Shown here: positions 27,210-63,681 of the stretch, piece after piece
How positions within the stretch are numbered: the stretch's first letter is position 1
How the letters are laid out: each line of letters starts with the position of its first letter
Assembly: GCA_965223005.1 (NCBI GenBank)
Contig: CBDCVK010000009.1
Location: forward strand, 51,386-115,385
Length of the DNA: 64,000 nt
Source of the DNA: Terriglobia bacterium
GTDB lineage: Bacteria > Acidobacteriota > Terriglobia > JAJPHL01 > JAPKYU01
Direction: 5' to 3'
Position numbers and translations under genes: made by a program
Notes under the pieces: generated by a model
Told to the model about the DNA's origin: nothing
The model's input: the letters and a program-made list of their open reading frames with translations, nothing else
Database searches by the model: none

Positions 27210-27243
27210 CACTTGTCCGGTTAGCGCGTTATACGTCCAACTG
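27210..27243 (+). repeat. 34-bp site A1 (class A, spacer GCGCGT)
   Basis: CACTTGTCCGGTTA GCGCGT TATACGTCCAACTG with conserved ~90-bp upstream flank. Confidence 0.9.
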
Positions 27244-27324
27244 GCGCACCGCTGAGCGGGTGGGGGTATGATCATTTCCGCCGCGCCTCGTTTTTGTGAA
27301 CTCGTACAAGGTTCCCATCTAGGA

Positions 27325-27410
27325 GGGCATTTACAAGCTGGCGCAGGCTGCGAGCGAAGCGGTCATAGCGGTAAACGACCACCGCGTCCACGCGGCGCTT
27401 CCGGCATCCG
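27325..27410 (-). pseudogene. Serine recombinase (resolvase) fragment
   Basis: RKRRVDAVVVYRYDRFARSLRQLVNAL matches the resolvase D-x-V-V-x-x-x-D-R-x-x-R motif. Confidence 0.65.
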
Positions 27411-27565
27411 GGGCCCGCTAAGGGAGTGGTGTGTTCAGAGACCAGAAAAAGGCGAATCGGGGACCCGAGCAAGGCCCCAAAGGCCCATGAACGCCCCTGG
27501 AAACGACTCGCACAGCTCCTCCAGAACGAAGCACTTTTATTTTTGCTGCGTTTTTCAGCACCCTG

Positions 27566-29002
27566 CTAGCGCACGAGGCGGGATTTTGGAAATTGGGCGT
27601 GCCAGCCGAACCAAAAGGCTCGGTGTGAAGGGAGGCGCTGTCGTCGTTCGCCCGAAGGGTGGATGAGCGCTTCCTCCCTCACTTCCCAAGCCTGGCCTTC
27701 TTCGTCGATGAGCAGCGAGTCCCGATTCCAATAAGCGAAGCTCACCCCGGTGGCATCGTGGACTCGATTGGCCCCCGACCGATCGGTCAAGATTACGAGA
27801 GGCTGGCTTCCAGCCCTTTCCTGATACAGTGGGTGCTTCTTCAGAAAAGAAGTGTCATAGGCGACCGCATTTCCCTTCAGCAGTAACGCAACGACTTCCT
27901 GTTTGTTCTTGAGCCGCTTGTCCTGAAAAGGAACCGGAAACATAAGGGCCTGGGTGGCAAAGTAATCTCGATAAGCGACGCCTTCCCTGTAATCCCTGTC
28001 ATGACCGGTTTCGAGCGACAGCACCTTGGTCCGCGGATGGCGCTGCTTCCACTCCTTCCAGGTGGTTGTGACAATGGGAAGTCGCTTCAACTGCAACCCG
28101 GAGCCCGTCAGCTTTCCGGTGACCGGAACTCCTTCCAGAGCCGACCACAGGGAACGGGTCTGACGGTCGTACATCAGTTTGTTGGACCGATAGATAAAGC
28201 CGCTGGTCCCGAAATCGAACTTCCGGCTTCCAATCCTTTGATCGTAAAGGACGGCGGACCCGCACAGGGTACAGTAGGCACAGGTCACATCGACGTCGCC
28301 AACAGTGTCGTTAAATAATTCATGCGCGGCCAGGATTCGCTTGGGATAAGCGCGGGCATCTCCATCGATAAAGACGCCGAAGACCACGTTCTTCTTGCCC
28401 AGATAGGTTGCCTCCCGGGCTTCGATGAACTTGGGATGCTCCAGAGGAGGAATCCCGTCCACTTTCACCCCTCCCCACACAATTTCATCCAGACGGATCG
28501 CGTGCTGCACCCCGGGGTAAAAAAACCAGCGAAATCGCTGGTCAATCTGCATATAGACCGCCTCTTTAAATCCCGGGTAGTCCGGGTGCATCTGGAATTC
28601 TTGCTGCCACATCCACTTTAGCCAGGTGTAGAAAGTTCGCTCCAACCTTTGCCCGGTTACCCGTTCGAGCATGCCCCACAGCCTCTTTGTGCGCAAATCG
28701 TTCGGAGGTAGAAATTGAATGACCTCCAGCACCATGGGCGCGAGACCTATTTCCCAACTGGATTCAATGATGGCCAGAGGCTCCGGCCGCGACGCCTTTC
28801 GCGGGTCCACGAAATCAGAAAGGGCCTGGACAGGATCATTCCCGGGAGAAGGGAGCCGTTGGCGAACCACCGCGGGAGCCTGCTCGATCGCACTCCCCTC
28901 TAACGCTTCAAAAGATCTGCCCCCAGCAATAACGCCGGATGCAAAAGCTACCAAACCTACCAGGATAAAAAACAACGTTGCGCTTCTAGAACGGATGAGC
29001 AT
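27566..29002 (-). CDS. DUF3179-family exported protein
   Basis: WGGVKVDGIPPL, RAYPKRIL..HELFND, YCTLCGS, SGFIYRSNKLMYDRQTRSLWS, FWFGWHAQFP; signal peptide. Confidence 0.85.
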   Translation of the reverse strand: MLIRSRSATLFFILVGLVAFASGVIAGGRSFEALEGSAIEQAPAVVRQRLPSPGNDPVQALSDFVDPRKASRPEPLAIIESSWEIGLAPMVLEVIQFLPPNDLRTKRLWGMLERVTGQRLERTFYTWLKWMWQQEFQMHPDYPGFKEAVYMQIDQRFRWFFYPGVQHAIRLDEIVWGGVKVDGIPPLEHPKFIEAREATYLGKKNVVFGVFIDGDARAYPKRILAAHELFNDTVGDVDVTCAYCTLCGSAVLYDQRIGSRKFDFGTSGFIYRSNKLMYDRQTRSLWSALEGVPVTGKLTGSGLQLKRLPIVTTTWKEWKQRHPRTKVLSLETGHDRDYREGVAYRDYFATQALMFPVPFQDKRLKNKQEVVALLLKGNAVAYDTSFLKKHPLYQERAGSQPLVILTDRSGANRVHDATGVSFAYWNRDSLLIDEEGQAWEVREEALIHPSGERRQRLPSHRAFWFGWHAQFPKSRLVR

Positions 29003-29285
29003 AACTGTATTGCCTCCTATCCCAAAAGTGGGTAGTAGCCCAGGCTCTGGCCAGTCATGGGAAGGCTCCCCTCTTGCCAGCGATCCTACGCCCCGCCCGC
29101 GGGCAAATCAACGTAGCGACTCGGCCAGTTGCAAGCGGCACGAGATACACTGCCTTGTCTCCAGTAATGCCGGATAGATTGCCCCTAACCCTCTAGTTCT
29201 TTCCGGTCCGGATGCCAACTCCCGAATGCTCGCCGACTCGGAAAGTACCCCAGCGCCTTGCGGCTCCTCGTCTAACGTCAGCGGT

Positions 29286-29319
29286 CACTTGGACGTATAG
29301 TCGGCTATCCGGACAAGTG
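29286..29319 (-). repeat. 34-bp site B1 (class B, spacer GCCGAC)
   Basis: Minus strand CACTTGTCCGGATA GCCGAC TATACGTCCAAGTG. Confidence 0.9.
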
Positions 29320-29475
29320 ACAAAGGGAATCCTCGGCAGCAGTGTTCCGGACGGGAGAAGGAAATGGAGTTTGGGTTCGATTAGGGTTCGATAAGGGTTT
29401 CCAAGCCTTCCTGAAGCTTCCTCAACATTGCTATGCGTACCGCAAAATGAATGACTTAGCCAAAAGGGGTTAAAG

Positions 29476-31225: not shown

Positions 31226-32664
31226 GAGGGTGTCCTGAACTCAGTTGAAAGTTCGTAGCGGCGGTTCGGAGCCATCATACTACGCCACCTCCCGTCGAGT
31301 GGCCGACTTTGATCCTTCGAGGATCGCTTTCAACATCCACAGGTCCTGGTACCCCATCAGGCGGCGGAAGTTTTTCTCCGTGGCCAGGAAGCTGGAGGCG
31401 ACCCAGCGCTGGACCATGGCCGCATCCCGCCAGCGGCACACCCGGCGAGTTCGCAACCTCACTCCCGCCTGCGGACTCTCGATGAGATTGGTGGTGGCCA
31501 GACAGCGATGCAGCGAAGCCGGAAGCCCCAGCCGGTTGATGGTGAAACATTCCTCCAGACCCTCCCGCAAGCTGGCCGCCGCGGCCGGACAATCTCGCTC
31601 CAACCATTGGGCCAACTTCTCCAGCTTGGCCCTGCCGGTCTTCGGATCCAACCGCCAGGCGGCCCGCATCGCCGCCCGCACCTGGTCCCGCTCTGGCTCC
31701 GGCAACCGGTCCAGGACGTTGCGCAACTTGTGGGCGCGGCAGCGCTGCACCGGCTGCTCGGCCCCGAACACGGCGCGGATCGCCGCCCGCAAGGCCTTCG
31801 AGCCGTCGATCACAAACAGCCGTTTCTGGGCCGGCTGCACCCCTCGCCGCACTAAACCTTCCAGCAAGTCCTGGACGGCCGCGGCGTTCTCCGTAGCCCC
31901 CTCCTGAATCCCCAGCACGTGCTTGTGCCCTTCCGCATCCACGCCCACAGCCGCAATCACGTGATGGTCGCCAAACACCATCCCGTCGATGTAGAGGATC
32001 AGCAACTCTACTTCCTCGAAGCGGCGGTTCAACAGACGTTCTAACTCGGCTGCGGCAGCCTCCATCGTTTCCCGGCTGACCGTGGAGCGCGACACACCCA
32101 CGGTGTCCGCCATCTCCGGCAACACCCGCTGGTACTGCCGGGTCGAGACGCCCCGCAGCAAGATATCCAACATCCGGGCCCCCAGACCCTCGCCCTCCTG
32201 CATGGCTTCGTAGGCCGGGAGGGGAACTTCTTTCCCCGCTCCCCGGCCTGGCCGCCGGAGCCGTGGCCTGTGCACGGCCAGCTTTCTCTCCTTCAGGCGC
32301 ACCCGTCCCCGCTGGCGCCCATACCAGCCTACCCCACGGCGCCGCCGGCCCTGACGGCGTGGACCGGCCACCTGCGCGGCCGACAACTCCAGCACCGCTT
32401 CAATCGCCGCCCTACCCACCACGTCGATCAGCTCGTCGACGGCTAACCGCGATTGTTCGATCAACTCCACCCAGGGCAGCAGAAACTGCCCGTGGCGAGC
32501 CAGGTAGGCAGCCAGTTTGCGGGAGCTTCGGCTATCGCTCCGGCCTAGGATGTGGTAGCTTCTCTGCACGGCGGTTCCCCTTTCCAGAAAGTTTCCCAAC
32601 CCGATTCTACGGAACCAGGTCAGCGAACCGCCGCTCGACTTTCAACTAAAGGTGAGACACTCTC
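31226..32664 (-). mobile_element. IS256-family insertion sequence
   Basis: Imperfect IRs GAGGGTGTC..AGTTGAAAGT / ACTTTCAACT..GACACTCTC; 8-bp direct repeat CGAGAACT at 31218-31225 and 32665-32672. Confidence 0.9.
31280..32569 (-). CDS. IS256-family transposase
   Basis: GVSTR, LYIDG, VIDGSKAL, QRCRAHKLRN, TTNLIES. Confidence 0.9.
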   Translation of the reverse strand: MQRSYHILGRSDSRSSRKLAAYLARHGQFLLPWVELIEQSRLAVDELIDVVGRAAIEAVLELSAAQVAGPRRQGRRRRGVGWYGRQRGRVRLKERKLAVHRPRLRRPGRGAGKEVPLPAYEAMQEGEGLGARMLDILLRGVSTRQYQRVLPEMADTVGVSRSTVSRETMEAAAAELERLLNRRFEEVELLILYIDGMVFGDHHVIAAVGVDAEGHKHVLGIQEGATENAAAVQDLLEGLVRRGVQPAQKRLFVIDGSKALRAAIRAVFGAEQPVQRCRAHKLRNVLDRLPEPERDQVRAAMRAAWRLDPKTGRAKLEKLAQWLERDCPAAAASLREGLEECFTINRLGLPASLHRCLATTNLIESPQAGVRLRTRRVCRWRDAAMVQRWVASSFLATEKNFRRLMGYQDLWMLKAILEGSKSATRREVA

Positions 32665-33985: not shown

Positions 33986-34093
33986 CCTCGCCAGCGGCTC
34001 AGCTCCAGCAGAATATTGGATCCCCGTCCGCCAGATCCACGGTTGCGAGAATTCCTGGTTCGTGCCCACTCGGATATGCAGGCCGGTGCGAGG

Positions 34094-35698
34094 CTAGTGC
34101 TCGATTGCTTTCTCGGCACCGAGGCCCGTGTTCGCGCGGACGCTGAGCTCGATGTATTTCTCCTCAGCCGACGGCTCTTTCGAGAGAACCGATCCCATAT
34201 ACGCCGCCAAGAAGCCCAGCGGAATGCTCACGATGCCGGGATTCTTCAGCGGGTACAACGTCGGCGCCTGAATCATCCGGCGCGCGGCTTCGGCGACCTC
34301 CGGCCCGTCGACCCCCATGAAGCTCGGGCTCACCAGGATCAGCCCGATCGAGGAGAACAACCCGGCCGCCAAACCCCATACCGCCCCGCGGGTTGTGAAC
34401 TTGCTCCAATAAACCGAGAACAGGATGACCGGCAAGTTCGCCGACGCCGCCACCGCGAACGCCAGTCCCACCAGAAACGCCACGTTCGCCCCCGGGCCCA
34501 ACCCGATGGCAATTGCGATGGACACCGCGCCGACGACGAGCGCCGTCCAGCGCGCCACACGCACCTCTTCGCCCGGCGAGCGCTCTTTGCCGTGATGGAT
34601 CACGTTCGTGTAGAAGTCGTGGGCGAACGAAGTCGAGGCGCTGATGGTCAACCCGGCCACTACGGCCAGAATCGTCGCGAACGCCACGGCCGAGATGAAA
34701 GCGAAGAAGACGTCGCCGGCCAGCGCCTGCGCCAGCAACGGGGCACTCATGTTGATGCCGCCGTTTTCCGAGATCGCATTGCGTCCGACGATCGTCGCCG
34801 CGCCGAAGCCCAGGAACGTCGTCATGATGTAGAAGGCGCCGATCAGCAGCATCGCCCAGAAAACGCTCACTCGGGCGGTCTTGGCGTCCGGTACGGTGTA
34901 AAAGCGAATGAGGATATGAGGCAGCCCGGCAGTGCCGAAGATCAGCGCCATTCCCAGCGAAATCAGATCGAGCGCACCGTAGGGCGGCTTGTAGTAGAGC
35001 CCAGGTGTCAGGAAGTTTTCTGTGACGGTTTGTCCGCCGGCCTGGTAGGTGACGCGGCTGGTGGCCTCGAAGAACGCGCCGAGGTCGAAGCCGAAGTGGC
35101 CGAGCACGAGAACACTCATCAGGAAAGTACCGCTCATCAGCAGGACAGCTTTGACAATTTGCACCCAGGTCGTCGCCAGCATCCCGCCGAAGACGACGTA
35201 GACGATCATGAGGATGCCGACGCCGGTCACAGCGCCCGTAAAGCTGATCCCGGAATCGGCTAGCAGAAGGCTCACCAGCGCACCCGCGCCCACCATCTGG
35301 GCGATCATGTAGAACGTGGAAACGGTCAGCGTGCTCAGCGATGCCCAGGCCCTTACCGGACGCGCTCGGAGCCGGTAGGCAAGTACGTCGGCCATGGTGT
35401 ATTTCCCGGCGTTCCGTAGCGGCTCGGCGACGACGAACAGCACGGTCAGGTAGGCGACCAAAAAGCCGACCGAATACATGAAGCCGTCGTAGCCGTAGAA
35501 GGCGATCAGCCCGGCAATCCCCAAAAACGATGCCGCGCTCATGTAGTCGCCCGAGATGGCGAGCCCGTTCTGCCAGCCTGTGATGCGCCTGCCGGCGGCG
35601 AAGTAGGCGCTCTCGCCCGAGGATCTGCCCGCGGCCCAATAGGTGATTCCGAGGGTGGCGGCGATGAACGTCAGAAACATCAGCAGCGATAGTGACAT
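34094..35698 (-). CDS. actP: Cation/acetate symporter (SSS family)
   Basis: NGLAISGDYMSAASFLG, EPLRNAGKYTMADV, GTAGLPHILIRFYTVP, AVAFATILAVVAGL. Confidence 0.9.
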   Translation of the reverse strand: MSLSLLMFLTFIAATLGITYWAAGRSSGESAYFAAGRRITGWQNGLAISGDYMSAASFLGIAGLIAFYGYDGFMYSVGFLVAYLTVLFVVAEPLRNAGKYTMADVLAYRLRARPVRAWASLSTLTVSTFYMIAQMVGAGALVSLLLADSGISFTGAVTGVGILMIVYVVFGGMLATTWVQIVKAVLLMSGTFLMSVLVLGHFGFDLGAFFEATSRVTYQAGGQTVTENFLTPGLYYKPPYGALDLISLGMALIFGTAGLPHILIRFYTVPDAKTARVSVFWAMLLIGAFYIMTTFLGFGAATIVGRNAISENGGINMSAPLLAQALAGDVFFAFISAVAFATILAVVAGLTISASTSFAHDFYTNVIHHGKERSPGEEVRVARWTALVVGAVSIAIAIGLGPGANVAFLVGLAFAVAASANLPVILFSVYWSKFTTRGAVWGLAAGLFSSIGLILVSPSFMGVDGPEVAEAARRMIQAPTLYPLKNPGIVSIPLGFLAAYMGSVLSKEPSAEEKYIELSVRANTGLGAEKAIEH

Positions 35699-35699
35699 T

Positions 35700-36029
35700 T
35701 CATTCATCCCCTTCGCCGTCGGCGGCCTCGTTGGCGATGGCCTTGTCAGCCAGGATCTTCTCGGACATTCGGTCAAACCGCCTGGCGATGCGCATGTAGA
35801 GATACGCCAGCGCCCAGGCCATCAAGAACTGCGAAAACGCAAACAGGTAGGCCCAGTTGACGACGCCCCACACCTGGCGCTCCATCAGCTCCGGCCAGTA
35901 GCCGACCAGCACCGGCAGCGCGAAGTAGAAAATGACGAAGAACGCCGTCGCGGATACGATGAAACGCGTTTTCTGGGCGATCATCCGCCTATAGTCAGGC
36001 GAGTTGTGGATACGGTCCCATTGGTTCAT
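35700..36029 (-). CDS. DUF485/YjcH-like membrane protein
   Basis: Two TMs, directly upstream of actP as in the known yjcH-actP pair. Confidence 0.85.
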   Translation of the reverse strand: MNQWDRIHNSPDYRRMIAQKTRFIVSATAFFVIFYFALPVLVGYWPELMERQVWGVVNWAYLFAFSQFLMAWALAYLYMRIARRFDRMSEKILADKAIANEAADGEGDE

Positions 36030-36969
36030 GGCGAAGCGCTAAGGATAACTTTCTTCCATTTCGACCGCGAGGAAACTGGAGAGAAGGCCCTCCGCGGAAA
36101 GATAGAAGCGCTGCTACAGAGGACTAATCTGCAGCAGCTACAGCAGGGATATAGGATACTGAAGGCGCTTCTCGGCCCTAAACCAGTTCACTTATCTTGA
36201 TCGCGGATGATATACCATCCAGTCGGTGCCTGTTGCCGCTTTTGTTGGCAGCCCTTGCGTTAGTCGGAATCCTCCACAAAGTCGCCTGGGCGACCTCCTC
36301 GTTTGGACCGACGACCAAAATAGCGTGGCTTGCAGATGAAAGCGCATAAGAATAATTCAAGGGTATCCTAGCTGAGTTTGCAAGATGAAGGAGTCGTTCA
36401 CGAATCAGCGCCTGACACGGCCGCGAGAAACCCTCAGCTACCTGCTAGTGCCCCAGCAATCGCAAGGGTGCCCCAGGAGCTTGCATCCGTTGCGGCAACG
36501 ATAGCCCCGTCATCGAACTCGATCTCCACGCTCAGCTGCACCTCGATAGCTCCGTCGTCCGCGGCACCCTTTCGAAGTCAATTTCAGATCCTATGGGCGG
36601 AAACATACTCCCTTGCCGTCGATCTTATCCTTCAGATCGATGTGCGCCATTTCCGGACAGAACCGGCAGGTCTTCGTAGGGCAAGGTATCGCCGAAATAG
36701 ATGCAGTTGGCGGTATCGTAGTTATCTTAACGTTTGGGTCATTGACCGCAGCGAACCGTGGCCAAAGGAGTTTGCCGTTGCAGTGTGCTTGCCAACTTCC
36801 AGGATCGTGACACCGTTTTTTCGGGCATGTCCGCCACCTCCGGTTGGCCAGAAACGGGGGGTCCTCTTCCAGGCCGGCTCCGCCGGTGTACTCAACAACC
36901 CCGGGAGCTTTGGACGCAAGGCTGATGAGTTTCTTGGTCGCCGACGGTCATCATCATGTTGCAGAGAAT

Positions 36970-38244
36970 CCCTTTCAACCGGGTATCGAAGCTTGGCTGG
37001 AGGGGGCCGTCGCATGTCGAGGCACGTCTTTGACCCTCTCTCCGAGGTGTTGGCTGCGAGGCGGGCGAGAATCCAGTAATTCAGGCAGTTGCCTGTCCCG
37101 GAGGCAGCACTTCACGGTGGACTTGCGGACGCTGTCTGGAGGTCTAATCTCGTGGGCGAGCTTCCCCCAGAAGATGCTTTCAGAGTGAATCGGACGCCCG
37201 CCCGGAGGGGCCATTTTGGCTGCCGGAGTCGATGCGGAACAGTTCGCCTGCCCAATCCCACGGTCCGGGACTTCCACCAAACCCTCTCTCCTGGGTCGAG
37301 AAGCTGGAGCCAACGAATCGTTCGCACCAGCTCTGACGCTCAGACCCGGAGCGCTCGGCTGCCGCCCGGAAGCTGGCAAAGGCGAAGGAGGCCAAGCTGA
37401 GCTACGCCGGGCACGTGCTGATGGAGTTCGACCGCAACGGGCTGGTGGTGAACCGCCTGTGCCGGCTGATCCAGGCCACCGGCACCGCCGAGCGGGAAGC
37501 GGCCGTGGAGATTGGTGGAACCCCACGCGACAGTTCCGGGCCCGCCGTCAGCAGCGTCCAACGGCTGCCTGGTGCCGACCAGAACTACGACTGGCGCGAA
37601 GCGATGGTGCAGCTGTCGTTGCCGGGATGCGGAAGGCCACGCCGCACGTGGCGCAGAACCAGGAACGGCGGCGCAGTGCTACTTCTTGACAGCCGGACTC
37701 ACACGAAGTTCTTCCCAATCCCGGGTTACCAGATCAGCCAGAGTCACCCTCGCGCTGGCAAGAACGGGTGGAAGACTCGAGTTGTCGCTCTGATGGATGA
37801 AGACCGGTCGGGTGTGCTGTCCGGAACCCGGCTGCGGCATCCGGGGCCTGTTGATCGCTGCGCAAGGTCGTCTTGCGTCAGGATCTGTCTCACCTGTAAC
37901 GGCTGCTGCGCCCGTTCAATCCTGAACCGATCCGGAATTCGCAACTTGGTGAGCCGCTCGGGGCCGTATCCTGCCGCGGGTAGATGGTGCCGGCTGAAGT
38001 CAGTTGAGGGGCCGTTCTTCCCCTGAGGAGTCGAGTGTGTCCAAAGGACGAACCCCAAACGGGCTGGGAGTTTTTCAGAGGCGGAAGCTGATTCGCGACA
38101 AGGCCCGCAAACCGGGGCCAATAGCCGAGGTGTCACTACGAAGGCAATGTTGATGCTGGAACCGGCTCAACGTTGGAGAAAAGGTTGCCGGCCGACAGGA
38201 TAAACGCTTGACTGACCTTTTTTGGCCGCTTTTTCAGCACCCTG
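36970..38244 (+). mobile_element. Heavily decayed IS5/IS1182-like element
   Basis: Frameshifted motifs HFTVD, EAKLSYAGHVLME, QATGTAEREAA, GADQNYD, TPHVAQN, PGYQISQ; end TTTTTCAGCACCCTG followed by CTAG. Confidence 0.7.
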
Positions 38245-38388: not shown

Positions 38389-38422
38389 CACTTGTCCGGT
38401 TAGCGCGTTATACGTCAAAGTG
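38389..38422 (+). repeat. 34-bp site A2
   Basis: CACTTGTCCGGTTA GCGCGT TATACGTCAAAGTG. Confidence 0.9.
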
Positions 38423-38877
38423 GCCTGCGTGCAGCATAGGTAAAAGCTAACCGCGGCTGAACTAGATTAGCAAACGTAGTGGTGTTGACCTCATTATCAA
38501 TCACGCCTCCGGCCACGATAAAAACCGCCCCCCGGCGGTAGAATTCAGCAAGTGGAGGTTGAAAGACAACACTGAACATCTTGATTCACATGTGTCATGG
38601 GGACTGTAGGGGATGAACTCAAATCGGAAATTCCGCCTCAAGGCTACCGGAAGCCCGTTGAGCCCCATTATCACGCAGTTCACCTATATGCAGTATCTTT
38701 ACGGTGACCGAAGAGTCATACTTGATATGTTCTTATGATGGCGGTGGGTTCGACCAATTAAGATCGGCTCTATTTCTTTTGTAAAAACCTCCCTTAAGAA
38801 TTGCGGTTTCAAGGGATTTCCCTGTGGAGAAACTTTGCATTGACTAACGTGTTTAGCGCCTCAGGAGGCAATGTGGC

Positions 38878-39094
38878 AATGATGGCCGCTGGGATTGCGT
38901 CTGCGGTCGACGATGTCCGCGGTTACGGGCCAGAAGTCGTCGAACGGCTTAGGGGGGCTTTGGAACAAAACTGCCCGGCCCGGCCAGATCCCCGCCATCC
39001 CTACCTGTTCGTCCTGGAGTGGGCGGGCGAGAGTTTCTATATCGCTCATCCTCCCACCGGGAAGATCCTGCTGCTGGCGCGCTGGCCGAGCTGA
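38878..39094 (+). CDS. Small hypothetical protein
   Basis: AGGAGG RBS upstream; about 70 aa. Confidence 0.5.
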
Positions 39095-39280
39095 GGCGGA
39101 CGGGTAGCGTTCAGGCAGCCTGTCAGCTATCACCCTGCCGAGACACAAACAGCCTGCTGGTTAATTCCAGGTTCAAATCTTCTGGGGTTTTTGGATGAGG
39201 ATGATTGGGCCGCCCTGGGACCAAGGAGGAAGCCGTCGGACGTCAGAATCACTTGGGCGAAGCGGCCGAAGCCGAGCCAA

Positions 39281-39490
39281 ATGCCATCCCGCGTCTTCAA
39301 GTGCGAAAGCTGTGGCATCTGCACGTCTCTCCTCATTCATGATGACCAATCGCCAGAAGGTATGAAGGAAAACCCTGTCGAGAAATACTGCCCTACGTGC
39401 CGGAGGTTGAGGAACTGGAGCTTTGTCTTCCCGGAACGGCGTAGCGGGCCACGTCGAAGGAGCGACCTGGATCGGCGCCGGGCAGAGTAG
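39281..39490 (+). CDS. Small zinc-ribbon protein with ERR/DRR tail
   Basis: CESC...CPTC then [15 protein letters not shown]. Confidence 0.6.
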
Positions 39491-39552
39491 ACAACAGTCT
39501 GCCAGTCGGCCCACCTCTGGCCGGCGGCGTTCTGGAGAGGAGTTGGCAGGTT

Positions 39553-41256
<1,704 letters not shown>

Positions 41257-41379
41257 CCCTGTCCAGTCTGGTAGTCTCCTTCACCCGCTCTTGCTTGTGC
41301 CAGGCGCGCCCCTGAGCCGGTCAACGCGCATCGGCTCCCGTCCCTAGCCAAGCCGTGGAAGCGGGCCTCGACCAAGTTC

Positions 41380-41413
41380 CACATGGACGTATAGTCGGCT
41401 ATCCGGACAAGTG
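41380..41413 (-). repeat. 34-bp site B2
   Basis: Minus strand CACTTGTCCGGATA GCCGAC TATACGTCCATGTG. Confidence 0.9.
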
Positions 41414-41441
41414 ACCCTCTACGCCCGCCAGGGTAGTGGGT

Positions 41442-41474
41442 CAGTTTCCGATAAGGCGTTATACATCCAAAGTG
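41442..41474 (+). repeat. Degenerate class-A site A3
   Basis: CAGTTTCCGATA AGGCGT TATACATCCAAAGTG; downstream flank (CACCGCTGAGCGGG...ATCATTTCCG) matches that of A1. Confidence 0.7.
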
Positions 41475-43640: not shown

Positions 43641-43674
43641 CACTTGTCCGGTTAGCGCGTTATACGTCCAAGTG
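43641..43674 (+). repeat. 34-bp site A4
   Basis: CACTTGTCCGGTTA GCGCGT TATACGTCCAAGTG. Confidence 0.9.
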
Positions 43675-49104: not shown

Positions 49105-49767
49105 TCAATCGGCGGCGAAGCAGTAGAAGAGGCCGTTACCGCCCGTGCCCTGCAAATCGTCCTGGCTGCAGCCTCTGGAGCCGTGCGCAGAGTTCCATGA
49201 CGTTGGATGTTCTCCGCCGCCCTGGCGATCGTGGTGGCCTACCCGGGCACCGCCTGCACCGCTACTTGTCCAATTCTCGCAGGTCATGTCAACCTCCCCC
49301 GAAAAAGCTGTGCCTTCGAGCTGCGAGCCGGTCAGGATGTCGTGCATATTGGGATTGTCCCCTCGGCCGTTGACCTCCTCGCCTTTCTCGTTGAGCGACG
49401 TCTGCTTGCTAAGATTGTTATTGTCTCCGTGGAGCTCGTCTACGTTTCGAGCTACGAGGACGCCTCGGGCGTTGTGCCAAGGCCCCTGGCCAATGCGGTC
49501 CCGGGCGTTGACAGCAGCGTTAGAGCCGGAAGCACTGGTGCTGAGATAGGCACGCCAGGTGCGATCGCTGGCTCCCGCAGGTTCGGCTAGCGCCTGGCAA
49601 TGCCGGTCTGCTCCGTCCAGGCCACCCAGATCGGCTCCATTGCCGGGGCCGATGCTCGTGATGAAGAAGCCCATGCTGGTGTCATCAGAGGCGTCCTGCG
49701 CCATCGCTACCTGCGTACCCAGCACCGACAACAACACTGACGCCAATGCAGAGAGGATCCTATTCAT
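49105..49767 (-). CDS. Exported lectin/endostatin-like domain protein
   Basis: ADLGGLDGADRHCQALA, WRAYLS, ARDRIGQGPW, HDILTGS, GLFYCFAA. Confidence 0.75.
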   Translation of the reverse strand: MNRILSALASVLLSVLGTQVAMAQDASDDTSMGFFITSIGPGNGADLGGLDGADRHCQALAEPAGASDRTWRAYLSTSASGSNAAVNARDRIGQGPWHNARGVLVARNVDELHGDNNNLSKQTSLNEKGEEVNGRGDNPNMHDILTGSQLEGTAFSGEVDMTCENWTSSGAGGARVGHHDRQGGGEHPTSWNSAHGSRGCSQDDLQGTGGNGLFYCFAAD

Positions 49768-50085
49768 GTCGTCCACCTCTTCTTTTTGTTTTGGGGATGA
49801 CCGCCGATCGTAACACCGTTACCCTCAGCAACAAACAAAGAACCAATCCTGAATCATTGACTTGTTCCATTAAGGATCAATGGAGTCCAACTGTTTTGAT
49901 TTCCTGGCCGACCAGTCTTCTGTGCCGCATAACTATTGTTTAGGCTGACCCACATAAAAACCCTTCCTGGACGGCCCAACGTGAAAGCGCCATTGCCTCG
50001 TCGCAGCCATAACCAACTGCTGTGTAACGACTTCCACTGCATGCCCAGAAACTATCGCAGCGCTTTGCCGCTCCTCGTCAGCGGC

Positions 50086-50119
50086 CACTTGGACGTATAG
50101 TCGGCTTACCGGACAAGTG
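50086..50119 (-). repeat. 34-bp site B3
   Basis: Minus strand CACTTGTCCGGTAA GCCGAC TATACGTCCAAGTG. Confidence 0.9.
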
Positions 50120-51275: not shown

Positions 51276-51321
<46 letters not shown>

Positions 51322-51711
51322 TTTATCCCATTGAACATCAATTGATTGTAGGTTGCTCAACGTTCAGCTGAGGAACGGCTGTGGTGCCAGTGTGCCCAAA
51401 TTTGTGCCCACTCTGTGCACGTTCCATGGCTTCCCGAACGACTAGTACGGACCTATCTGTCAAATCCGAAGCAAGTTCTTTCGTTTCAGAGCGTCTGCGC
51501 CGAAGCCTCCCCGATCTTGGTCCTGGAATAGTCCCGCCGGTGACCCGTGTCGAACGACAGCACGATAGTTCCCGAATGTTGTTTCTTCCAGATGATAGAT
51601 GATTGGCTAGGTTGTTCACCGCCTGATGGGTCCAGCGGCTCTTGCCGACGCTTGACTTTTCGGGATACAGGGAAATATCTTCGCCCTGTTGCCCCCGGCG
51701 GGTTGCCGTTT

Positions 51712-57249: not shown

Positions 57250-57283
57250 CACTTGTCCGGTTAGCGCGTTATACATCCAAGTG
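57250..57283 (+). repeat. 34-bp site A5
   Basis: CACTTGTCCGGTTA GCGCGT TATACATCCAAGTG. Confidence 0.9.
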
Positions 57284-57387: not shown

Positions 57388-57870
57388 CTACTGCACGGCA
57401 ATGGTGACGGTGTTGCCCGGAACGCCGTCGATGATGATCTCGACGTTCTGCGTGCCCGACGGGACACCCCCTGGCACCTGCACGTTCACCTGGTAGAGTC
57501 CCACGAATCCTGAGGCCAGGCCGGAGAAGGTCACCTGGGCAGGTATGCCGGCAATGTTCACCAGCGGTGTGCTCAGCGTCTCTGCCAGTGGCTCCGTGCT
57601 GGGGGCAACGTCCCCGGAGGGGACTTCGGGCTGCACCGGACCGAGTCCAGTGCAAAAGATCATCAGGAACTCGCCCGCCTGTGCCGGGGCACTGTCGCTC
57701 ACTGGCTGGAAATCTTCCGCGTGCAGGATCGCCCCGGCTCCGGTGCCCTGCGCGTTCAGCGTAAAAATGCCCGGCGATACGGCTGCGATCCCGATCGGCT
57801 GCGCCTCGCTCGTTTCACTGCCCCGCCTCACCTGCACCATGACCGCCCCGGAGCCGGTCATCTGGACCAA
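57388..57870 (-). pseudogene. 5'-truncated TIGR03437-like domain gene
   Basis: SPGIFT...IFCTGLG...FSGLASGFVGLYQVNVQVP; overlaps the upstream ORF out of frame. Confidence 0.7.
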
Positions 57871-60749
57871 ATGGGTTGGGTGACGAATGCGCCCTCGTCG
57901 TTTGCTAAGAACCCGATTCCGCTAAGTTCCGGAGTAGATGAGCTGCCAAGAATCTCAAGGCTACCCTCACCGGTCGCGGTGCACGGAAGGACATCCCGAA
58001 GCAAGAAGGCTCTGTGCTCGCCGTCGACAAACGAAAGCGTTGTACTGCAGCGCACAGCCCCCTCCACCCCCGACCGCGCCGTCAGCGTGACGGTCTGCGC
58101 CACCCGGGAGACCAACGCCAGCGACGGGGTGAAACCGCCGTCCGACACGTAGGGCACGTAAGCGGTGCTATGGCGCGTGTTCGTCGCCGGGATTCCGGCC
58201 ATGAAGGGTGGACGGCCAGGCACAAGTTGGACAAATGTCGCGTTGACGGCAACCGAATCGTTTGGGGTCGACGTGATTCGAGCGTAACCGATCCGGGCGC
58301 CGGAGCCGTTCGGGACTGTCTGAACCGCCGTATAGCCCCCCGGCTGAAGCGTCGCCGTGAAACCGACGAACTCGCCGCCCAATGTCGGCATGCTCATAGG
58401 GGCTCCCTGGGAGTCGAAGAACTCGACAGTGACCGTCGCGGGTCCGCTCGTCACGTTCACGGCGCTGAAAATCGTGAAGAACCCGCTCTCAGGCGTGCCA
58501 GTGTTGGCGATCTGGGGGATGATGTCTGGTAAGGCGACCGTGATCTTGGCGATAAAGGCGTGACCAGAACCCGCGCCAAAAGTGGCCTGGAAGGCTCCCC
58601 CCGTCGTGGGGAAGTCCATACTAGAGGTAATTCCTGTCACATACGCGTTGCCGGGGGCATCTGCGGCAATGGCCACGCCAATATCAGTTATATTGCCGCC
58701 GAGGTAGGTGGAATAAACGAGAGCGTTGCCAGCGGCATTCAATTTCGTGACAAAGGCGTCGCCGGCAAATAAGCCGCTGCTGCCGGTGCCGCCGTAGGCA
58801 GGCTGGACGGGGCTGGCCGTGGGGAAGTCAGTGGAATTCGTCTGCCCTATCACGTAAGCGTTGCCGGTGGTGTCTACGGCGATGCCGCGGCCACCGTCGT
58901 CGTCGCTGCCGCCGAGGTAGGTGGAATAAACGAGAGCGTTGCCGGCGGCATTCAATTTCGTCACAAAGGCGTCGAGGCCGCCACCGTTAGCGGGCTGGAG
59001 GGGACTGGCCGTGGGGAAGTCGACCGTCTGGCCCGTCACGTAGGCGTTGCCGGAGGAGTCTAGGGCGATGCCCTCGCCAAAGTCAAAGCTGCTGCCACCG
59101 AGGTAGGTGGAGTAAACGAGAGTATTGCCGGCGGCATTCAATTTCGTCACAAAGGCGTCGGAGCGACCCCCGAAAGCGGGCTGGAAGGAACTCGCCGTGG
59201 GGAAGTCGGGCGAACGCGTCCAACCCGTCACGTAGGCGTTGCCGGAGGCGTCTACGGCGACGCCCGTGGCCTCCTCGAATCCGCTACCGCCGAGGTAGGT
59301 GGAGTGAACCAGAGCACTGCCGGCGGCATTCAATTTCGTCACAAAGGCGTCGGAGCGACCCCCGAAAGCGGGCTGGAAGGAACTCGCCGTGGGGAAGTCG
59401 GGCGAACGCGTCCAACCCGTCACGTAGGCGTTGCCGGAGGCGTCTAGGGCGATGCCGCGGCCAACGTCGGTGCCGAAGCCGCCCAGGTAGGTGGAGTAAA
59501 CCAGAGCGTTGCCGGCGGCATTCAATTTCGTCACAAAGGCGTCGAAGATGCCGCCGTTGTACTGTGGCTGGATGGGACTGGCCCTGGTCCTGGCGAAGCC
59601 GAACGAATTCGTGGACCCCGTGACGTAGGCATTGCCTGAGGAGTCCACAGCGATGGCATTACCGGCCTCCTGCCCGTCGCCGCCCAGGTAGGTGGAGTAA
59701 ACCAGAGCATCCCCGGCGGCATTCAATTTCGTCACAAAGGCGTCGGAGCCGCCGCCGAAAGCAGCCTGGAAGGAACTCGCCGTGGGGAAGTCGGTCGAAC
59801 TGGTGTTGCCCGTCACGTAGACGTTGCCTGCGGTGTCTACGGCTATGCCCAAGCCGCTGTCCCCTACGGCGCTGCCGCCGCCAAGGTAGGTGGAGTAGCT
59901 CAGCACCGGGTCAATGATGAGCGGCTTGCTAGCATCATACGCGGCCACCTGGAAACCAACCTGGCGCCCGCCGTTGAGCACGTAGGCCCCGGCGATTTCC
60001 CGCCGGACGCCGTCTACCTGCTGATAGACCAATGGCTATTGCAGGCGAACTTGACCACCGTCGCTGTACAACACCAGGTCGCCTTGGGCATCTATTTCCA
60101 GTTTATCTTCACCCTCGAAGGCGAGCTGGATGGCCCCAGGATCGGTCCCGGGATTGACGATCAGGTCGTACTCCAGCTGTCTCTGGTTGCCGTAATAAAC
60201 CAGGTCCACTCCGGGATAAACGTCCTCGTACTGCACTTTGGCGTAGTGAAGGACATTGGTGCGCCACTTGGACGGGTCGTTGCCGAGGAAGTAGTTGCTC
60301 TTTCCGGGCAGCTCCTCCAACCCCGAAACCCGTGGCGATGGGTTGGCGCCGACCAGCTTCATACGTAGCACGGCCGTTGGGGCAGCAGGAGCCTGCTCCG
60401 CTTCTGCATTGCGCGGCGTCCCATTGTCTCTGCGCGGTCTGTTGGACGCGACGGGCTTGCGCAAGGCCAACACTGCCTCAGTGGGAGTCAAGAACAGGGT
60501 GTAGCCGCTGCCCCGCGACAGGAAGTCCACATGGTTGTCGGTCTGCCCCTCATTGGCTTCAAAGCTTAGCGGCAGCTTGCCGTAAGCCTCCACGACCTGC
60601 AGCTTGTTGGCCGCCGGAGTGTTCGCTGCGGAGTATGACTCGCGGGCAAGGCCAGGGCGGGAACCCAGTCCCACCACGGCGACGCCTAGCAGCCCGAGCG
60701 TTAGAAGCGCCATTCCCGGTCCCACGGTACCAAGCAAGGTCCTGTGCAT
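57858..60749 (-). pseudogene. SBBP beta-propeller repeat secreted protein interrupted by an in-frame TAG
   Basis: [37 protein letters not shown], repeated DAFVTKLN; ORFs 60036-60749 and 57858-60032 share a frame, TAG at 60036-60038. Confidence 0.8.
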
Positions 60750-60861: not shown

Positions 60862-60895
60862 CACTTGGACGTATAGTCGACTATCCGGACAAGTG
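60862..60895 (-). repeat. 34-bp site B4 (spacer GTCGAC)
   Basis: Minus strand CACTTGTCCGGATA GTCGAC TATACGTCCAAGTG. Confidence 0.9.
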
Positions 60896-61488: not shown

Positions 61489-61688
61489 TAGATTCCCAGT
61501 CGGGACATGTCACAAGCGACGGTCGCAGACCGCCGCTTTTCTACGTTACCTGGACCGTCGTCCGAGGCCGCTGACCGAAGCAAGGGATACCCCACACAAT
61601 CCGGGCAGAACATACGTAAGCACTAGCCTGTTTGTGGGGACTATTGGCCTTTTTGCGCTAGACCTGCTTCCCCGAAGGCGATCCAAGG

Positions 61689-61722
61689 CACTTGTCCGGT
61701 TAGCGCGTTATACGTCAAAGTG
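61689..61722 (+). repeat. 34-bp site A6
   Basis: CACTTGTCCGGTTA GCGCGT TATACGTCAAAGTG. Confidence 0.9.
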
Positions 61723-61869
61723 GCCGGCGTGGCAGCATCGGTGAGTGCTAACCGACTAGTGGGAGACCTATCCGGCAAGTCTGAGTCAACTCTTGCCGTT
61801 TCATGGGTCACTCAGGCAAGCCTGCCAATTCTCTCCTGCGCTGCGGCTCTTCTGGCGCGGGCCCCCAAC

Positions 61870-62076
61870 TCAAACCCGAATCGACGATGACCCGAATGCC
61901 GCTGAACTACAAAAATCTTGCCCGCGACGACGGATTTTGTCGTTCTCCTTCAAGCACAGCACTACATGGGCCCCGGCCAAGTCATGCCAGTCGGCCGCTA
62001 CCAAGGCGCCTGTCTCGCTATAGTCCACCAACCCGCCCCTTACGTTGCTCCTGTAAGTAACCAGGAGCACCTCCAC
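61870..62076 (-). pseudogene. Possible PilZ-domain remnant
   Basis: VRGGLVDYSETGALV resembles the PilZ DxSxxG motif. Confidence 0.35.
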
Positions 62077-62221
62077 AGAAGGCGCAGTTGTGCTTGGGCA
62101 GCCGACTCTGTGTTAGGGGGGAATACCCACACCGGGCAATCACTAAGCTCTACATGCGCCAATCCGTGGTGGGGTTTACGCCCGCTGAGAAGAGTGCACC
62201 GAGAGGGGTACTACCGCGCGG

Positions 62222-63301
62222 CTATGCTGCGGCTGGGCCATCCCCCAGGGGTAGTCGAACTGCCTGGCCATCGCCTTTCTTATCGGCCATTCCTGCCGGC
62301 AGAGCGACAGCCTTTATCTTGTAAAGCAGCGCCCGGTAGCTGATGCGGAGCACCCGGGCAGCTTCTTTCCGGTTCCAGTTGTTGGCTTGCAATACCTTGA
62401 GGATAATTCTGTGCTCCATTTTCCGAACTGCGTTGCGGGTCAACTGTTTAAGGGAAACTCGGCGGCTGAAGGGCACCTCCGGGTCAAAATGGCTCTGTTC
62501 GCCCGTCGGCAATTCCGTGATGGCTGTTTCTTCCGACCCAAGAATCACGTACCACTTGATCACATTTTTCAGCTCGCGAATATTCCCCGGCCACTCATAG
62601 TCTCGCAGGAGTTTCAGGAGGCGCGAGGAAGGCCGCCGGACCCCGCAGTTGAACTTTTCGCGGTAAAACTGCAGAAAGTAATTCACTAGATCCGGGATGT
62701 CGCCACTGCGCTCGCGCAGCGGTAACAGTTGCATATTCACCACATTAATGCGGTAAAAAAGATCCGAGCGGAAGGAGCCGCTCTTCGTCTCCTCCTCCAG
62801 CCGACGATTGGTGGCGCAGACCACCCGTACCTCCACCCGCTTGTCTTCCCGAGCGCCAATCCGGCTAAACTGGCCATCCTGCAACAACTGCGACAATTTG
62901 GCCTGCAACATCGGGTCTAACTCGGCGATTTCATCCAAAAACAGCGTGCCCCGGTGGGCCAGTTCCACTTGGCCCGGCTTGGTTCCATAGGCCTCGGTGA
63001 ACGCCCCCTTCTCATAGCCGAACAGCTCACTTTCCAGCAGTGTGCCGAGAATCGCCGGGCAGTGGACTTTGACAAAGGGACCGTCTTCCCACGGAGAGCG
63101 CATGTGGAGCAACTTGGCCACTAACCCTTTGCCGGTCCCGCTTTCCCCGCAGATCAACACCGGAACATTGGCCCCGGCCACCTTCTGCGCTTTTTGCCGC
63201 ACCGCTTGCATAGCTTCCGACCGCCCGAAGATGACCGGTTCGGGTGGCAGAATGCCGACAGCGGCGGAGGGATAGGATTCAGTCGCCGGGATGGATGCCA
63301 T
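62222..63301 (-). CDS. Sigma-54-dependent transcriptional activator lacking an N-terminal input domain
   Basis: GESGTGK, ESELFGYEKGAFTEA, FLDEI, DLFYRINV, WPGNIREL, Fis-type HTH. Confidence 0.88.
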   Translation of the reverse strand: MASIPATESYPSAAVGILPPEPVIFGRSEAMQAVRQKAQKVAGANVPVLICGESGTGKGLVAKLLHMRSPWEDGPFVKVHCPAILGTLLESELFGYEKGAFTEAYGTKPGQVELAHRGTLFLDEIAELDPMLQAKLSQLLQDGQFSRIGAREDKRVEVRVVCATNRRLEEETKSGSFRSDLFYRINVVNMQLLPLRERSGDIPDLVNYFLQFYREKFNCGVRRPSSRLLKLLRDYEWPGNIRELKNVIKWYVILGSEETAITELPTGEQSHFDPEVPFSRRVSLKQLTRNAVRKMEHRIILKVLQANNWNRKEAARVLRISYRALLYKIKAVALPAGMADKKGDGQAVRLPLGDGPAAA

Positions 63302-63681
63302 TAGGTCCTCCTAAATCGTCGTCAATGAGCAAGACTTTGGGTCGTTCCATGCCTCATGGCTCCAGTTGGTGGTGTTCAAATACGCCTCGATAACTCTCCA
63401 GCACCACTCACCGGGAGAATCCGTAGAAACTCCGGCAGGCTCCTGCGGCTCATCCGTGCCGCAACTACCACGCAGAACAGCGCTGCCATGGCCTGGGTTC
63501 TTGTCGGGTTCATAACAGCATCTAGTCAAACGCAACGGCAGCAAGCAGCCAATAGGCTAACAGTTACATTTTGCTCGGTCCTTTGGACCAGCAGGGGCGC
63601 GCCCAACAGATCCGGACAACTGCGAACATAAAGTAGAATCAGTCAGTTATGAACCATTACGCGTCGCTAGAACCTACTTTT

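Follow-up and report, generated by a model that had tools for sequence, protein, structure and literature searches.

Heterospecific lox or FRT pairs are engineered sites, used for recombinase-mediated cassette exchange with Cre or Flp. The attC sites of integrons have an R''-L''...L'-R' layout with an unpaired central spacer, and REP/BIME, REPIN-RAYT and MITE repeats are known elsewhere as rearrangement hot spots. The system most like the locus described here is that of the dif modules of Acinetobacter Rep_3 plasmids. PMC13141974 describes short pdif sites, acted on by XerC/XerD, in which a 6-bp centre lies between two unlike arms. Inverted neighbouring sites give two alternating module types (C and D), which are added in pairs, and sites with like spacers react with each other.

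The window, i.e. the whole 64,000-nucleotide stretch analysed, from a Terriglobia MAG (G000), contains intergenic 34-bp sites of comparable anatomy. When the whole window was scanned with the consensus, allowing up to three mismatches, nine 34-mers claimed in an earlier note were found at their positions with 0-1 mismatch each; none of 100 dinucleotide shuffles of the window yielded a match, and 0 were expected by chance. In each site a left arm (CACTTGTCCGG..) and an unlike right arm (..TATACGTCCAAGTG) flank the centre, of which there are two conserved versions, ..AGCGCGT.. in class A and ..AGCCGAC.. in class B. The claimed spacers were confirmed: the five class A sites, all on the plus strand, have GCGCGT, and the class B sites, all on the minus strand, have GCCGAC (three) or GTCGAC (one). 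The proposed imperfect 14-6-14 palindrome holds in so far as the arms agree at 10/14 positions, but a 16-2-16 reading is also possible; direct reading then gives symmetric pairs at 12/17 positions in A and 13-14/17 in B, with GC as the centre of A and CG as that of B. All window sites are intergenic relative to long ORFs, as had been noted, and positions 1-27000 are free of them. The site at 41442, taken for a degenerate A, is real and represents a conserved third class, a*, with the left arm CAGTTTCCGATAAG, while the decayed B suspected at 63580-63622 is absent (no ungapped alignment there even with 12 mismatches allowed). The features of the window are as follows.

26807-26883, plus: tRNA-Pro(CGG); its last 46 bp (26838-26883) are the left direct repeat (attL)
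27210-27243, plus: site A1, class A, GCGCGT; outer-left flank conserved over about 100 bp
27323-27406, minus: small serine recombinase relic of 28 codons, 80 bp inside A1
27566-29002, minus: DUF3179 protein, cargo of the module between A1 and B1
29286-29319, minus: site B1, class B, GCCGAC
31226-32664, minus: IS256-family IS (Mutator transposase) with its own inverted ends, unrelated to the 34-mers
34004-36255, minus: segment of a sodium:solute symporter, at 99-100 % identity in three species
38389-38422, plus: site A2, with conserved outer flank from 38245
38423-41379, plus: module between A2 and B2, with a 912-bp conserved segment and a second rpoD-type sigma-70 gene (39553-41256)
41380-41475: doublet of B2 (41380-41413, minus), a 28-bp hairpin linker and the a* site a3 (41442-41475, plus)
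43641-43674, plus: site A4, with outer flank from near 43554
43831-49776, minus: cargo of the module between A4 and B3: BNR/Sortilin/BACON protein (1301 aa), putative cyclase and 223-aa ORF
50086-50119, minus: site B3, GCCGAC
51276-51321, plus: attR, 46-bp repeat of the tRNA-Pro 3' end
57250-57283, plus: site A5
57858-60749, minus: cargo of the module between A5 and B4: SBBP beta-propeller/DUF7948 gene, split into two ORFs
60862-60895, minus: site B4, GTCGAC; the centre ATAGTCGACTAT is a perfect 12-bp palindrome
61689-61722, plus: site A6, followed by a sigma-54 activator gene (62222-63301, minus)

The tRNA-Pro island measures 24.4 kb between the 46-bp direct repeats at 26838-26883 and 51276-51321, and in the related species G001 the tRNA is followed directly by the sequence of window 51322-51440. 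The earlier reading of the sites as module boundaries, with a class/strand rule and interspecies breakpoints, stood, but not that of a single self-contained array in the window: the island holds part of it and sites extend past the right end. No partner B for A6 was found up to the window end. Several segments have counterparts in the related species. The IS256-family IS is an insertion within the interval from B1 to A2, and G001 and G003 have copies of it at 100 % identity; homology to G003 (L008) ends near 43554, where the outer flank of A4 starts. In L007 the symporter segment adjoins the outer flank of a B site, in L003 that of an A site, and it is therefore a left-arms-inside module.

The MAG has 28 distinct sites when up to 5 mismatches are allowed, or 41 with a* included and up to 7 mismatches, and three sister species have 21, 5 and 36. 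Elsewhere the family is rare (4 of 400 other Acidobacteriota genomes). The sites lie mostly in tRNA-linked islands, and the hosts are soil Acidobacteria, mainly of one genus. The 34-mer forms the core of conserved mosaic repeats of greater length: conservation covers about 90-145 bp on the outer side of A, each class has two kinds of inner flank (that of B1, about 150-190 bp, recurs at many B sites), and a 30-bp motif, R, occurs on both sides of the 34-mer. The core is much better conserved than the flanks, across species and even families.

The claimed clustering and alternating orientation were also seen beyond the window. Among 66 pairs of neighbours at most 15 kb apart in G000, G001 and G003, class/strand coupling was kept in 61, of which 44 were of different class on opposite strands and 17 of the same class on the same strand; the latter include same-strand runs of B sites without A in G003. 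The exceptions were four pairs of the same class on opposite strands and one of different class on the same strand. As A and B face each other, the island DNA is a chain of two interval kinds. Intervals with the right arms inside contained cargo in 21/21 cases (509-13284 bp, 1-3 genes). Of those with the left arms inside, 16/23 were mere linkers of 27-37 bp, and some others hold genes. The linkers, in 16 cases conserved 28- or 36-bp sequences, result in B-A doublets of about 100 bp, and between such units the array orientation was kept in 21 intervals, with 4 head-to-head or tail-to-tail. The cargo agrees with the claim that unrelated genes lie between the sites: the genes are ordinary and diverse, lie on either strand in units of up to 13 kb, and the short units have no transposase.

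The sites coincide with breakpoints of interspecies homology, as predicted. When crossing was defined as a contiguous interspecies match of at least 80 % identity over at least 400 bp on each side, 0 of 100 sites were crossed (one was collinear with a gap), compared to 10-18 % of nearby control positions (31/198 at 700 bp, 35/193 at 1500 bp and 19/182 at 3000 bp). One-sided homology ends were found at 45 of the 100 sites and at 16-24 % of controls. Isolated sites behaved in the same manner: the flanks of C2:447479 map to separate G001 contigs, and at C6:61769 homology of the left flank breaks off about 245 bp short of the site, with no match for the right flank. Taken over all homology ends, a crude test showed only weak enrichment within 200 bp (8.7 % vs 5.0 %). 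Whole site-bounded modules recur in unrelated contexts. The rpoD module also sits between doublets in G001 (L002 9742-13243), and the left-arms-inside unit G000:C10:1569872-1572173 corresponds to G003 L008 9960-12287 (92 %). The flank type on one side of a site was independent of that on the other (B p=0.105, A p=0.41), while arm variants tracked the adjacent flank (B right arm and inner flank p=0.008, A left arm and outer flank p=0.019) and none of four tests against the opposite flank was significant; the p-values are indicative only, since the tests use related copies and several comparisons.

The reading that we favour, with about an even chance, is that the 34-mers are the joints of a module-exchange system served in trans, most likely as crossover sites of a site-specific recombinase encoded elsewhere. 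In the simplest mechanism, a circle made up of a single A, a single B, a cargo and a linker would enter or leave by conservative recombination of A with A or of B with B, and two such events would exchange a single module. A comparable route has been proposed for Acinetobacter dif modules. The unlike centres would prevent A from reacting with B, in which case arrays would stay in register and modules would not be flipped. Joints in contigs were indistinguishable from other genomic doublets and demonstrated neither a circle nor an excision junction.

The arrangement shares much with the dif modules as described in PMC13141974: short sites with two unlike arms and a 6-bp centre, inverted neighbours giving two alternating module types (right-arms-inside and left-arms-inside here), unrelated accessory genes reshuffled between replicons, modules without their own enzyme gene, and an expected addition in pairs. 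However, the 34-bp site lacks the XerD arm TTATGTTAAAT, and compared to the XerC arms of Table 1 in that source only 7 centre-proximal right-arm bases match (CGTATAA in A), possibly by chance. Here there are two fixed, orientation-tied centre classes, whereas that source gives many spacers. One of the module types here is usually an empty 28-36-bp linker, and the modules lie in tRNA islands of Acidobacteriota chromosomes instead of on plasmids.

As in integrons, promiscuous cargo units are arranged in tandem, with an imperfect inverted-repeat element between them. The statement that the sites are not attC-like is valid for single sites, but the B-linker-A doublets share with attC the layout of two inverted simple sites, which face each other around a variable middle and whose centres stay unpaired when folded. 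On folding, doublets give long hairpins (z-scores -5 to -8; -0.9 and -3.4 for distant copies); the folding of single sites is not significant (z = -1.3, -1.6). In contrast to integrons, direct reading finds no GTTRRRY core, cargo units reach 13 kb with genes on both strands, doublet halves may also be kilobases apart, and arm pairing is not conserved. Engineered lox/FRT pairs are similar in that two 34-bp sites differing only in the centre flank a cassette, and like reacts with like and no inversion follows. They are man-made, whereas here orthogonality of A and B is a proposal and no Cre-like gene is linked to the sites.

The search for a co-occurring recombinase, which the earlier note had placed outside the window, tied none to the sites. 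The tyrosine recombinases encoded close to sites proved to be unrelated integrases of tRNA islands. None of the ten full-length tyrosine recombinases in G000 reaches the integron integrase model cut-off, and there is no integron integrase within the window. The rve genes of G000 are of IS type and away from site clusters. The sites differ from canonical dif and from the ends of the IS elements present, and no resemblance to the host dif could be shown. Since the centres of A and B are symmetric dinucleotide contexts (GC vs CG), a serine recombinase is as good a fit as a tyrosine one. Like the res sites of Tn3, Sin and beta, the sites are dimer-sized and part-palindromic with a symmetric central dinucleotide, and doublets place two of them 28-36 bp apart. 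Only in G003 do sites have small resolvase genes as neighbours, at distances of 480-580 bp, and the relic beside A1 is 93 % identical to residues 62-89 of the L030 resolvase of G003. Unlike in res systems, the sites are not immediately upstream of a resolvase gene. No intact small resolvase was found in G000 or G001, and small serine recombinases did not co-occur with the sites in the other site-bearing genomes (G041, G151, G353, G042 and G008).

The lack of a recombinase among the genes found would suit the main alternative, which we regard as possible but unlikely: that the B-linker-A doublet with R-motif flanks is a non-autonomous repeat of MITE/REPIN/BIME type, spread within the genus by transposition or copying. 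Its copies would act as homology patches, and island DNA would be shuffled there by RecA-dependent or illegitimate recombination, e.g. after DNA uptake from sister species, and single A and B sites would be doublet halves parted by insertions. The 34 identical bases may be just enough for homologous recombination. The embedding of the 34-mer in longer mosaic repeats with the R motif and several alternative flanks and linkers is a counterpoint to the module-exchange proposal, as are the weak enrichment of homology ends near the sites and the runs of B without A in G003. Like those families, these are intergenic hairpin-forming doublets of about 100 bp in tens of copies per genome, patchy in phyletic spread. 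Moreover, many breaks are 60-170 bp off the 34-mer, at the flank edge rather than the core, and one orthologous locus has a 72-bp indel between two direct B-like sites. On the other hand, no Y1/RAYT transposase was present in G000 or G003, no cognate transposase or IS with such ends was found, and the copy number is far under that of typical REP families. Independent insertions should face both ways, whereas orientation is uniform within arrays (the 21 intervals against 4). Gene-bearing left-arms-inside intervals act as discrete units, the core is conserved far above its flanks, and doublet arms vary independently, so hairpin pairing is not maintained.

It is improbable that A and B are instead terminal inverted repeats of cargo transposons (mobile insertion cassettes) mobilised by a DDE transposase in trans, with doublets as the junctions of adjacent insertions. 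Left and right transposon ends often differ slightly, and right-arms-inside intervals, always with cargo, are indeed bounded by slightly unlike inverted 34-mers. These units recur in other contexts, and truncated genes abut repeat edges (e.g. the integrase fragment G000:C10:114621-114764). Independent insertions do not explain the conserved 28-/36-bp linkers in 16 cases, left-arms-inside intervals are likewise discrete units, and no transposase with 34-mer-like ends was found in the site regions of four genomes. That the 34-mer is an operator, a nucleoid-protein site or a transcription terminator/stabiliser in foreign DNA, with a secondary link to breakpoints, is very improbable: the strictly intergenic placement, the partial palindrome with two half-sites and the position of B 5' and A 3' of the cargo genes in 4/5 window modules would fit, but direct reading shows no sigma-70-like spacing within the site, single sites fold insignificantly, no Rfam family matches, the cargo is functionally unrelated, and operators are not expected at every homology break or in class/strand-coupled pairs.

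The overall picture resembles a gene-cassette exchange system with a predicted enzyme, in which the tRNA-linked islands of these bacteria are split into modules that are found in new combinations in related species.

The repeated 34-mer consists of a left arm, a centre and a right arm of unlike sequence. Scanning the window with its consensus gave nine matches with 0-1 mismatch, compared with none in 100 shuffles of the window sequence. The centre is GCGCGT in all five plus-strand sites (class A) and GCCGAC or GTCGAC in all four minus-strand sites (class B), and the nine intact sites and their spacer and strand classes described in the earlier note are thus borne out. The sites in the window, all of them between genes as had also been described, are the following:

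27210, plus strand, class A site (A1)
29286, minus strand, class B site (B1)
38389, plus strand, class A site (A2)
41380, minus strand, class B site (B2)
41442, site of a third class (a*)
43641, plus strand, class A site (A4)
50086, minus strand, class B site (B3)
57250, plus strand, class A site (A5)
60862, minus strand, class B site (B4)
61689, plus strand, class A site (A6)

The element at 41442, 28 bp from B2, had been taken for a degenerate A site. It is a real site, but it belongs to a conserved third class with the left arm CAGTTTCCGATAAG. Scanning of 63580-63622, where a decayed B site had been suspected, found no such site. The 34-mer is the best-conserved core within longer mosaic repeats. 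The outer flank of class A is conserved over ~90-145 bp and that of class B over a comparable length, the inner flank occurs in two alternative kinds for A and two for B, and a 30-bp motif is repeated on both sides of the sites. No XerD-type arm was found in A or B by direct reading of the site sequences, and a search of Rfam gave no family match except tRNA.

The arrangement of the sites was assessed from 66 pairs of neighbouring sites, at distances of up to 15 kb, in three well-assembled species. In 44 pairs the neighbours were of different class and on opposite strands, and in 17 they were of the same class and on the same strand; four pairs combined the same class with opposite strands and one combined different classes with the same strand. 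The alternating inverted layout proposed earlier therefore holds as a class and strand rule, kept in 61 of the 66 pairs. Two kinds of interval lie between facing sites. Those with the right arms inside (n=21) all carry cargo and span 0.5-13 kb, while 16 of the 23 with the left arms inside are linkers of 27-37 bp and the remaining seven span 0.8-9 kb. The linkers join B to A or B to a* in doublets, and are either a conserved, self-pairing 28-bp or a 36-bp sequence. At 222.3-231.5 kb of contig C2 of the source genome (G000) the order is doublet-cargo-doublet-cargo-doublet-cargo; the window, with three long left-arms-inside intervals, is less typical than such arrays. The doublets of the genus form long hairpins (folding z -5 to -8), as would any inverted repeat. 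Doublets from distant genomes fold poorly and single sites have no significant folding, so that arm pairing is not obviously maintained.

The genome-wide scan suggested in the earlier note was carried out on the G000 assembly (3.24 Mb, 10 contigs), of which the window is C9:51386-115385, and the sites were mostly clustered, with a few isolated ones. There were 28 distinct sites at up to 5 mismatches, or 41 when a* was counted and up to 7 mismatches were allowed, and the clusters were at C2 136-145 kb, C2 218-272 kb, the window on C9, C10 109-114 kb and C10 1.56-1.58 Mb. The other three species of the genus had 21, 5 and 36 sites, the lowest count being from a genome that is 62% complete. Beyond the genus, two of 37 further relatives had one site each, and in the rest of the phylum four of 400 sampled genomes had 1-4 sites at up to 3 mismatches. 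Exact pattern matches occurred on 32 metagenome contigs, mostly one site per contig, and the public records with the same site are Terriglobia and other Acidobacteriota MAGs. Two distant MAGs have doublets with 15-16-bp linkers in which the difference between the A and B centres is retained. The neighbours of the sites in distant genomes and metagenome contigs are ordinary genes. Three metagenome contigs (L071, L075 and L076) from organisms outside the genus share 1.75 kb with a DUF1028+TPR gene as well as an A-like and a B site; this is a conserved module.

The accessory part of the window has no synteny in the sister species, where pieces of it are scattered. A site or control position was counted as crossed when a contiguous interspecies match of at least 80% identity covered at least 400 bp on each side. 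None of 100 sites was crossed and one was collinear with a gap, compared with crossing of 16, 18 and 10% of control positions 700, 1500 and 3000 bp away, respectively. A one-sided match ended within 300 bp at 45 of the 100 sites and at 16-24% of controls. The expectation that the sites mark synteny breakpoints is in line with these figures (0 of 100 sites crossed, 10-18% of nearby controls). An earlier version of the test gave 0 of 105 sites and 11% of random positions, and a blunter test on all match ends gave a weak enrichment near sites, with 8.7% vs 5.0% within 200 bp. Many breaks lie 60-170 bp from the site, where the conserved flank ends, which counts against a strict reading in which breaks occur at the core. 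At the single collinear locus (G000:C2:144.6 kb vs L009 of sister species G001) the two species differ by a 72-bp indel, which lies between two B-like sites in direct orientation. Isolated sites are likewise found at homology breaks.

Whole site-bounded intervals recur as units in unrelated surroundings. The rpoD module of the window matches G001 L002 9742-13243, where it has doublets on both sides, and a 2.3-kb left-arms-inside unit at G000:C10:1569872-1572173 matches L008 9960-12287 of sister species G003 with 92% identity. The sodium:solute symporter segment adjoins the outer flank of a B site in one species and that of an A site in another. The kinds of flank on either side of a site assort independently. 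Of four tests for association of the arm variant with the adjacent flank, two were positive (p=0.008 and p=0.019), and of four with the far flank none was. The statistics on flanks and arms are indicative only, the copies being related. In public runs X19-X24 about 80% of sampled words were present, as short contigs, and such contigs from four of the runs, which cover the region, contained joints such as 41453>57263 and 50141>43639, with 12 letters between; these joints equal doublet junctions found elsewhere in the genome and are indistinguishable from them.

Part of the window is also a classical tRNA island. The last 46 bp of a tRNA-Pro(CGG) gene ending at 26883 are repeated (26838-26883 and 51276-51321), and in G001 the tRNA-Pro is joined directly to the sequence of window 51322-51440, which together define 26884-51321 as an island of 24.4 kb. 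Its integrase is gone, as a PF00589 profile search gave no match on the contig of the window. The same tRNA-Pro in G001 and G003 has differing integrases and differing cargo, indicating an integration hot spot. Insertion at a tRNA gene whose 3' end is repeated is a trait of the surrounding island and not of the A/B sites, which extend past its right end. The site clusters at C2 218-272 kb and C10 1.56-1.58 Mb sit in tRNA-linked islands, and eight of twelve tyrosine-recombinase matches in G000, one of them a fragment, are within 6-115 bp of a tRNA gene. At G000:C10:114346-114764, beside a tRNA-Val, a B site with ~106 bp of outer flank abuts what is left of an integrase gene, its 3' fragment; the intact gene is found in G001 (L019), and the edge of the repeat is the point of truncation.

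The cargo of the window includes DUF3179, a sodium:solute symporter, a sigma-70 factor, a rhomboid protease, BNR/BACON surface proteins, a cyclase, a beta-propeller protein and a sigma-54 activator. Other short units carry an MFS transporter, an aldo-keto reductase, response regulators, SpoIIE, GGDEF and FHA proteins, and a hydrolase. No transposase was found in the short units. Two of their proteins without Pfam matches (612 and 546 aa) were considered as recombination enzymes and rejected, since their translations read as secreted or surface proteins. The rpoD-type sigma-70 gene (39553-41256) is a second copy, its protein being 97% identical to that of G000:C10:704922-706622; G001 has three copies of this gene region. 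The symporter segment (34004-36255) is 99-100% identical in three species, far more alike than the flanking core DNA (85-93%), which points to a very recent exchange between species. Next to it, a 2-kb stretch with two Pfam-less ORFs (36256-38244) is missing from the otherwise collinear G001 locus L003, and is bounded by imperfect ~20-bp repeats (GCCGCTTTT..GCA.CCC) and not by A/B sites. DUF7948 (57858-60749, minus strand) is divided over two adjacent ORFs, one of 237 aa and the start of a 724-aa SBBP protein, probably through a frameshift, or else the gene is broken.

The earlier note anticipated a co-occurring tyrosine recombinase. Those near the sites proved to be mutually unrelated tRNA-island integrases, and the integrases near isolated B sites were rejected as the recombinase on the same ground. 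G000 encodes XerD and a XerC-like gene. The rve genes in G000 are of IS type and located away from the site clusters, and the IS256-, IS3- and IS4-type elements of these regions either end in other sequences or have no site nearby. A census of neighbouring genes was dominated by IS3 elements and antisense pseudo-ORFs, and no recombinase family emerged from it.

Several mobile elements were encountered in the same regions. The IS256-family element at 31226-32664 has 100% identical copies in G001 (at least 10) and G003, and to judge from these copies it is active and shared between species. An IS3-family element lies ~70 bp from an A site, inside the A outer flank, at both L025 ~9056 and L028 ~10544 of G003; the equal distance may reflect either a target preference or co-duplication. 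In G003, three tyrosine recombinase genes in a row (frames of 334, 540 and 430 aa) occur twice in identical form (C2:2040465-2042853 and 2879446-2881834), an arrangement which we take to resemble 'recombinase in trio' elements. A 390-aa recombinase is present in many copies in G001 and G003, and two copies are often adjacent.

One lead is provided by small serine recombinases, which the symmetric GC/CG centres would suit, although this is a lead only. In resolvase/res systems such a gene is next to its multi-subsite res. G003 has two intact genes of this kind 480-580 bp from sites: L026 13108-13734, 480 bp from a B site and behind a small helix-turn-helix ORF, and L030 7193-7774, 580 bp from an A site and the first gene after a tRNA. 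In the window, a 28-codon relic with 93% identity to the L030 protein is found 80 bp inside A1 (27323-27406, minus strand). No intact small serine recombinase was found in G000 or G001, and no linkage of such genes to sites in other site-bearing genomes.

The closest parallel in layout is with dif modules (XerCD/pdif), in which, as here (21 right-arms-inside and 23 left-arms-inside intervals), neighbouring sites are inverted and two module types alternate. According to PMC13141974, the C and D modules of Acinetobacter alternate, are added in pairs, and react between sites of like spacer. Unlike dif, the A and B sites do not have the 28-bp structure of XerC arm, 6-bp spacer and XerD arm (TTATGTTAAAT-like). 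They also differ in having two fixed centre classes tied to orientation and a second module type that is mostly empty, and the site is of its own kind, in a chromosomal island setting and in another phylum. Searches of G000 for ATAA-N6-TTAT and XerD-arm-like motifs gave no credible canonical dif, and its GC skew is too weak to place the terminus. One 28-mer (C10:1630195) was rejected as a dif candidate, being present in G001 and not in G003. In an arms-only scan of 27 relatives outside the genus, A/B-like sites were absent or were rare 3-mismatch matches, and thus they are not a shared single-copy feature of these relatives.

Integron attC sites are built of two inverted simple sites, and the doublets have an analogous layout. 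Their arm pairing is not conserved in distant copies. Unlike integrons, G000 has no integron integrase (IntI) among the ten full-length tyrosine recombinases scanned, the best TIGR02249 match reaching 142 bits vs a cut-off of 265, and RYYYAAC/GTTRRRY core motifs were absent on direct reading. The sites further differ from REPIN/RAYT systems in the lack of a Y1 transposase gene (PF01797) in G000 and G003, the two site-richest genomes relative to size; weak PF01797 matches in G001 are away from the sites. No prior description of the site came up in literature searches on pdif/XerC modules and on mobile elements of Acidobacteria, which is not proof of absence.

An exchange of units between like sites would predict the class and strand rule, the asymmetry between cargo and linker intervals, the breakpoints, and flanks that assort freely. 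The unit would be one cargo and one linker with one A and one B, and recombination between like sites would insert, remove or swap such units. We consider the chances evenly balanced that the sites are the recombination joints of such module exchange. It is possible, if rather doubtful, that they belong to an undescribed chromosomal cassette platform in Acidobacteriota islands, a third kind beside integrons and dif modules. A recombinase supplied in trans would then insert, excise and swap circles with one cargo, one A and one B; candidates would be a small serine recombinase, or host XerC/XerD working on a site other than dif. Inversion would be prevented by the two centre classes as naturally heterospecific sites, or the two centres might instead stay unpaired in the middle of a folded doublet resembling attC. 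If an enzyme and a conservative crossover were demonstrated, there would be a fair chance that this is a new cassette platform.

The main rival explanation is a MITE-, REPIN- or BIME-like repeat family, the copies of which would serve as patches for homologous recombination. Such a family accounts for the mosaic flanks and for breaks at repeat edges, but it fails on the uniform orientation within arrays (21 vs 4) and has no transposase to go with it, and we regard it as unlikely. That the sites are the ends of transposons carrying the cargo is improbable, and that the 34-mer is a regulatory site is highly improbable.

Even if repeats and homologous recombination explain the pattern, the sites would be precise markers of island mosaicism, of use for delimiting modules in metagenome-assembled genomes. 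A natural pair of 34-bp sites that do not cross-react could, along with the enzyme acting on it, be put to use directly for cassette exchange. Should the sites prove to be recombination joints, they would show how accessory genes are assembled and traded among uncultured soil Acidobacteria; the cargo here ranges from transporters, signalling proteins and surface proteins to a second sigma factor of the housekeeping type. Genes would then be exchanged between species without transposases or integrons, and the principle of dif modules would reach from Acinetobacter plasmids to the chromosomes of another phylum.
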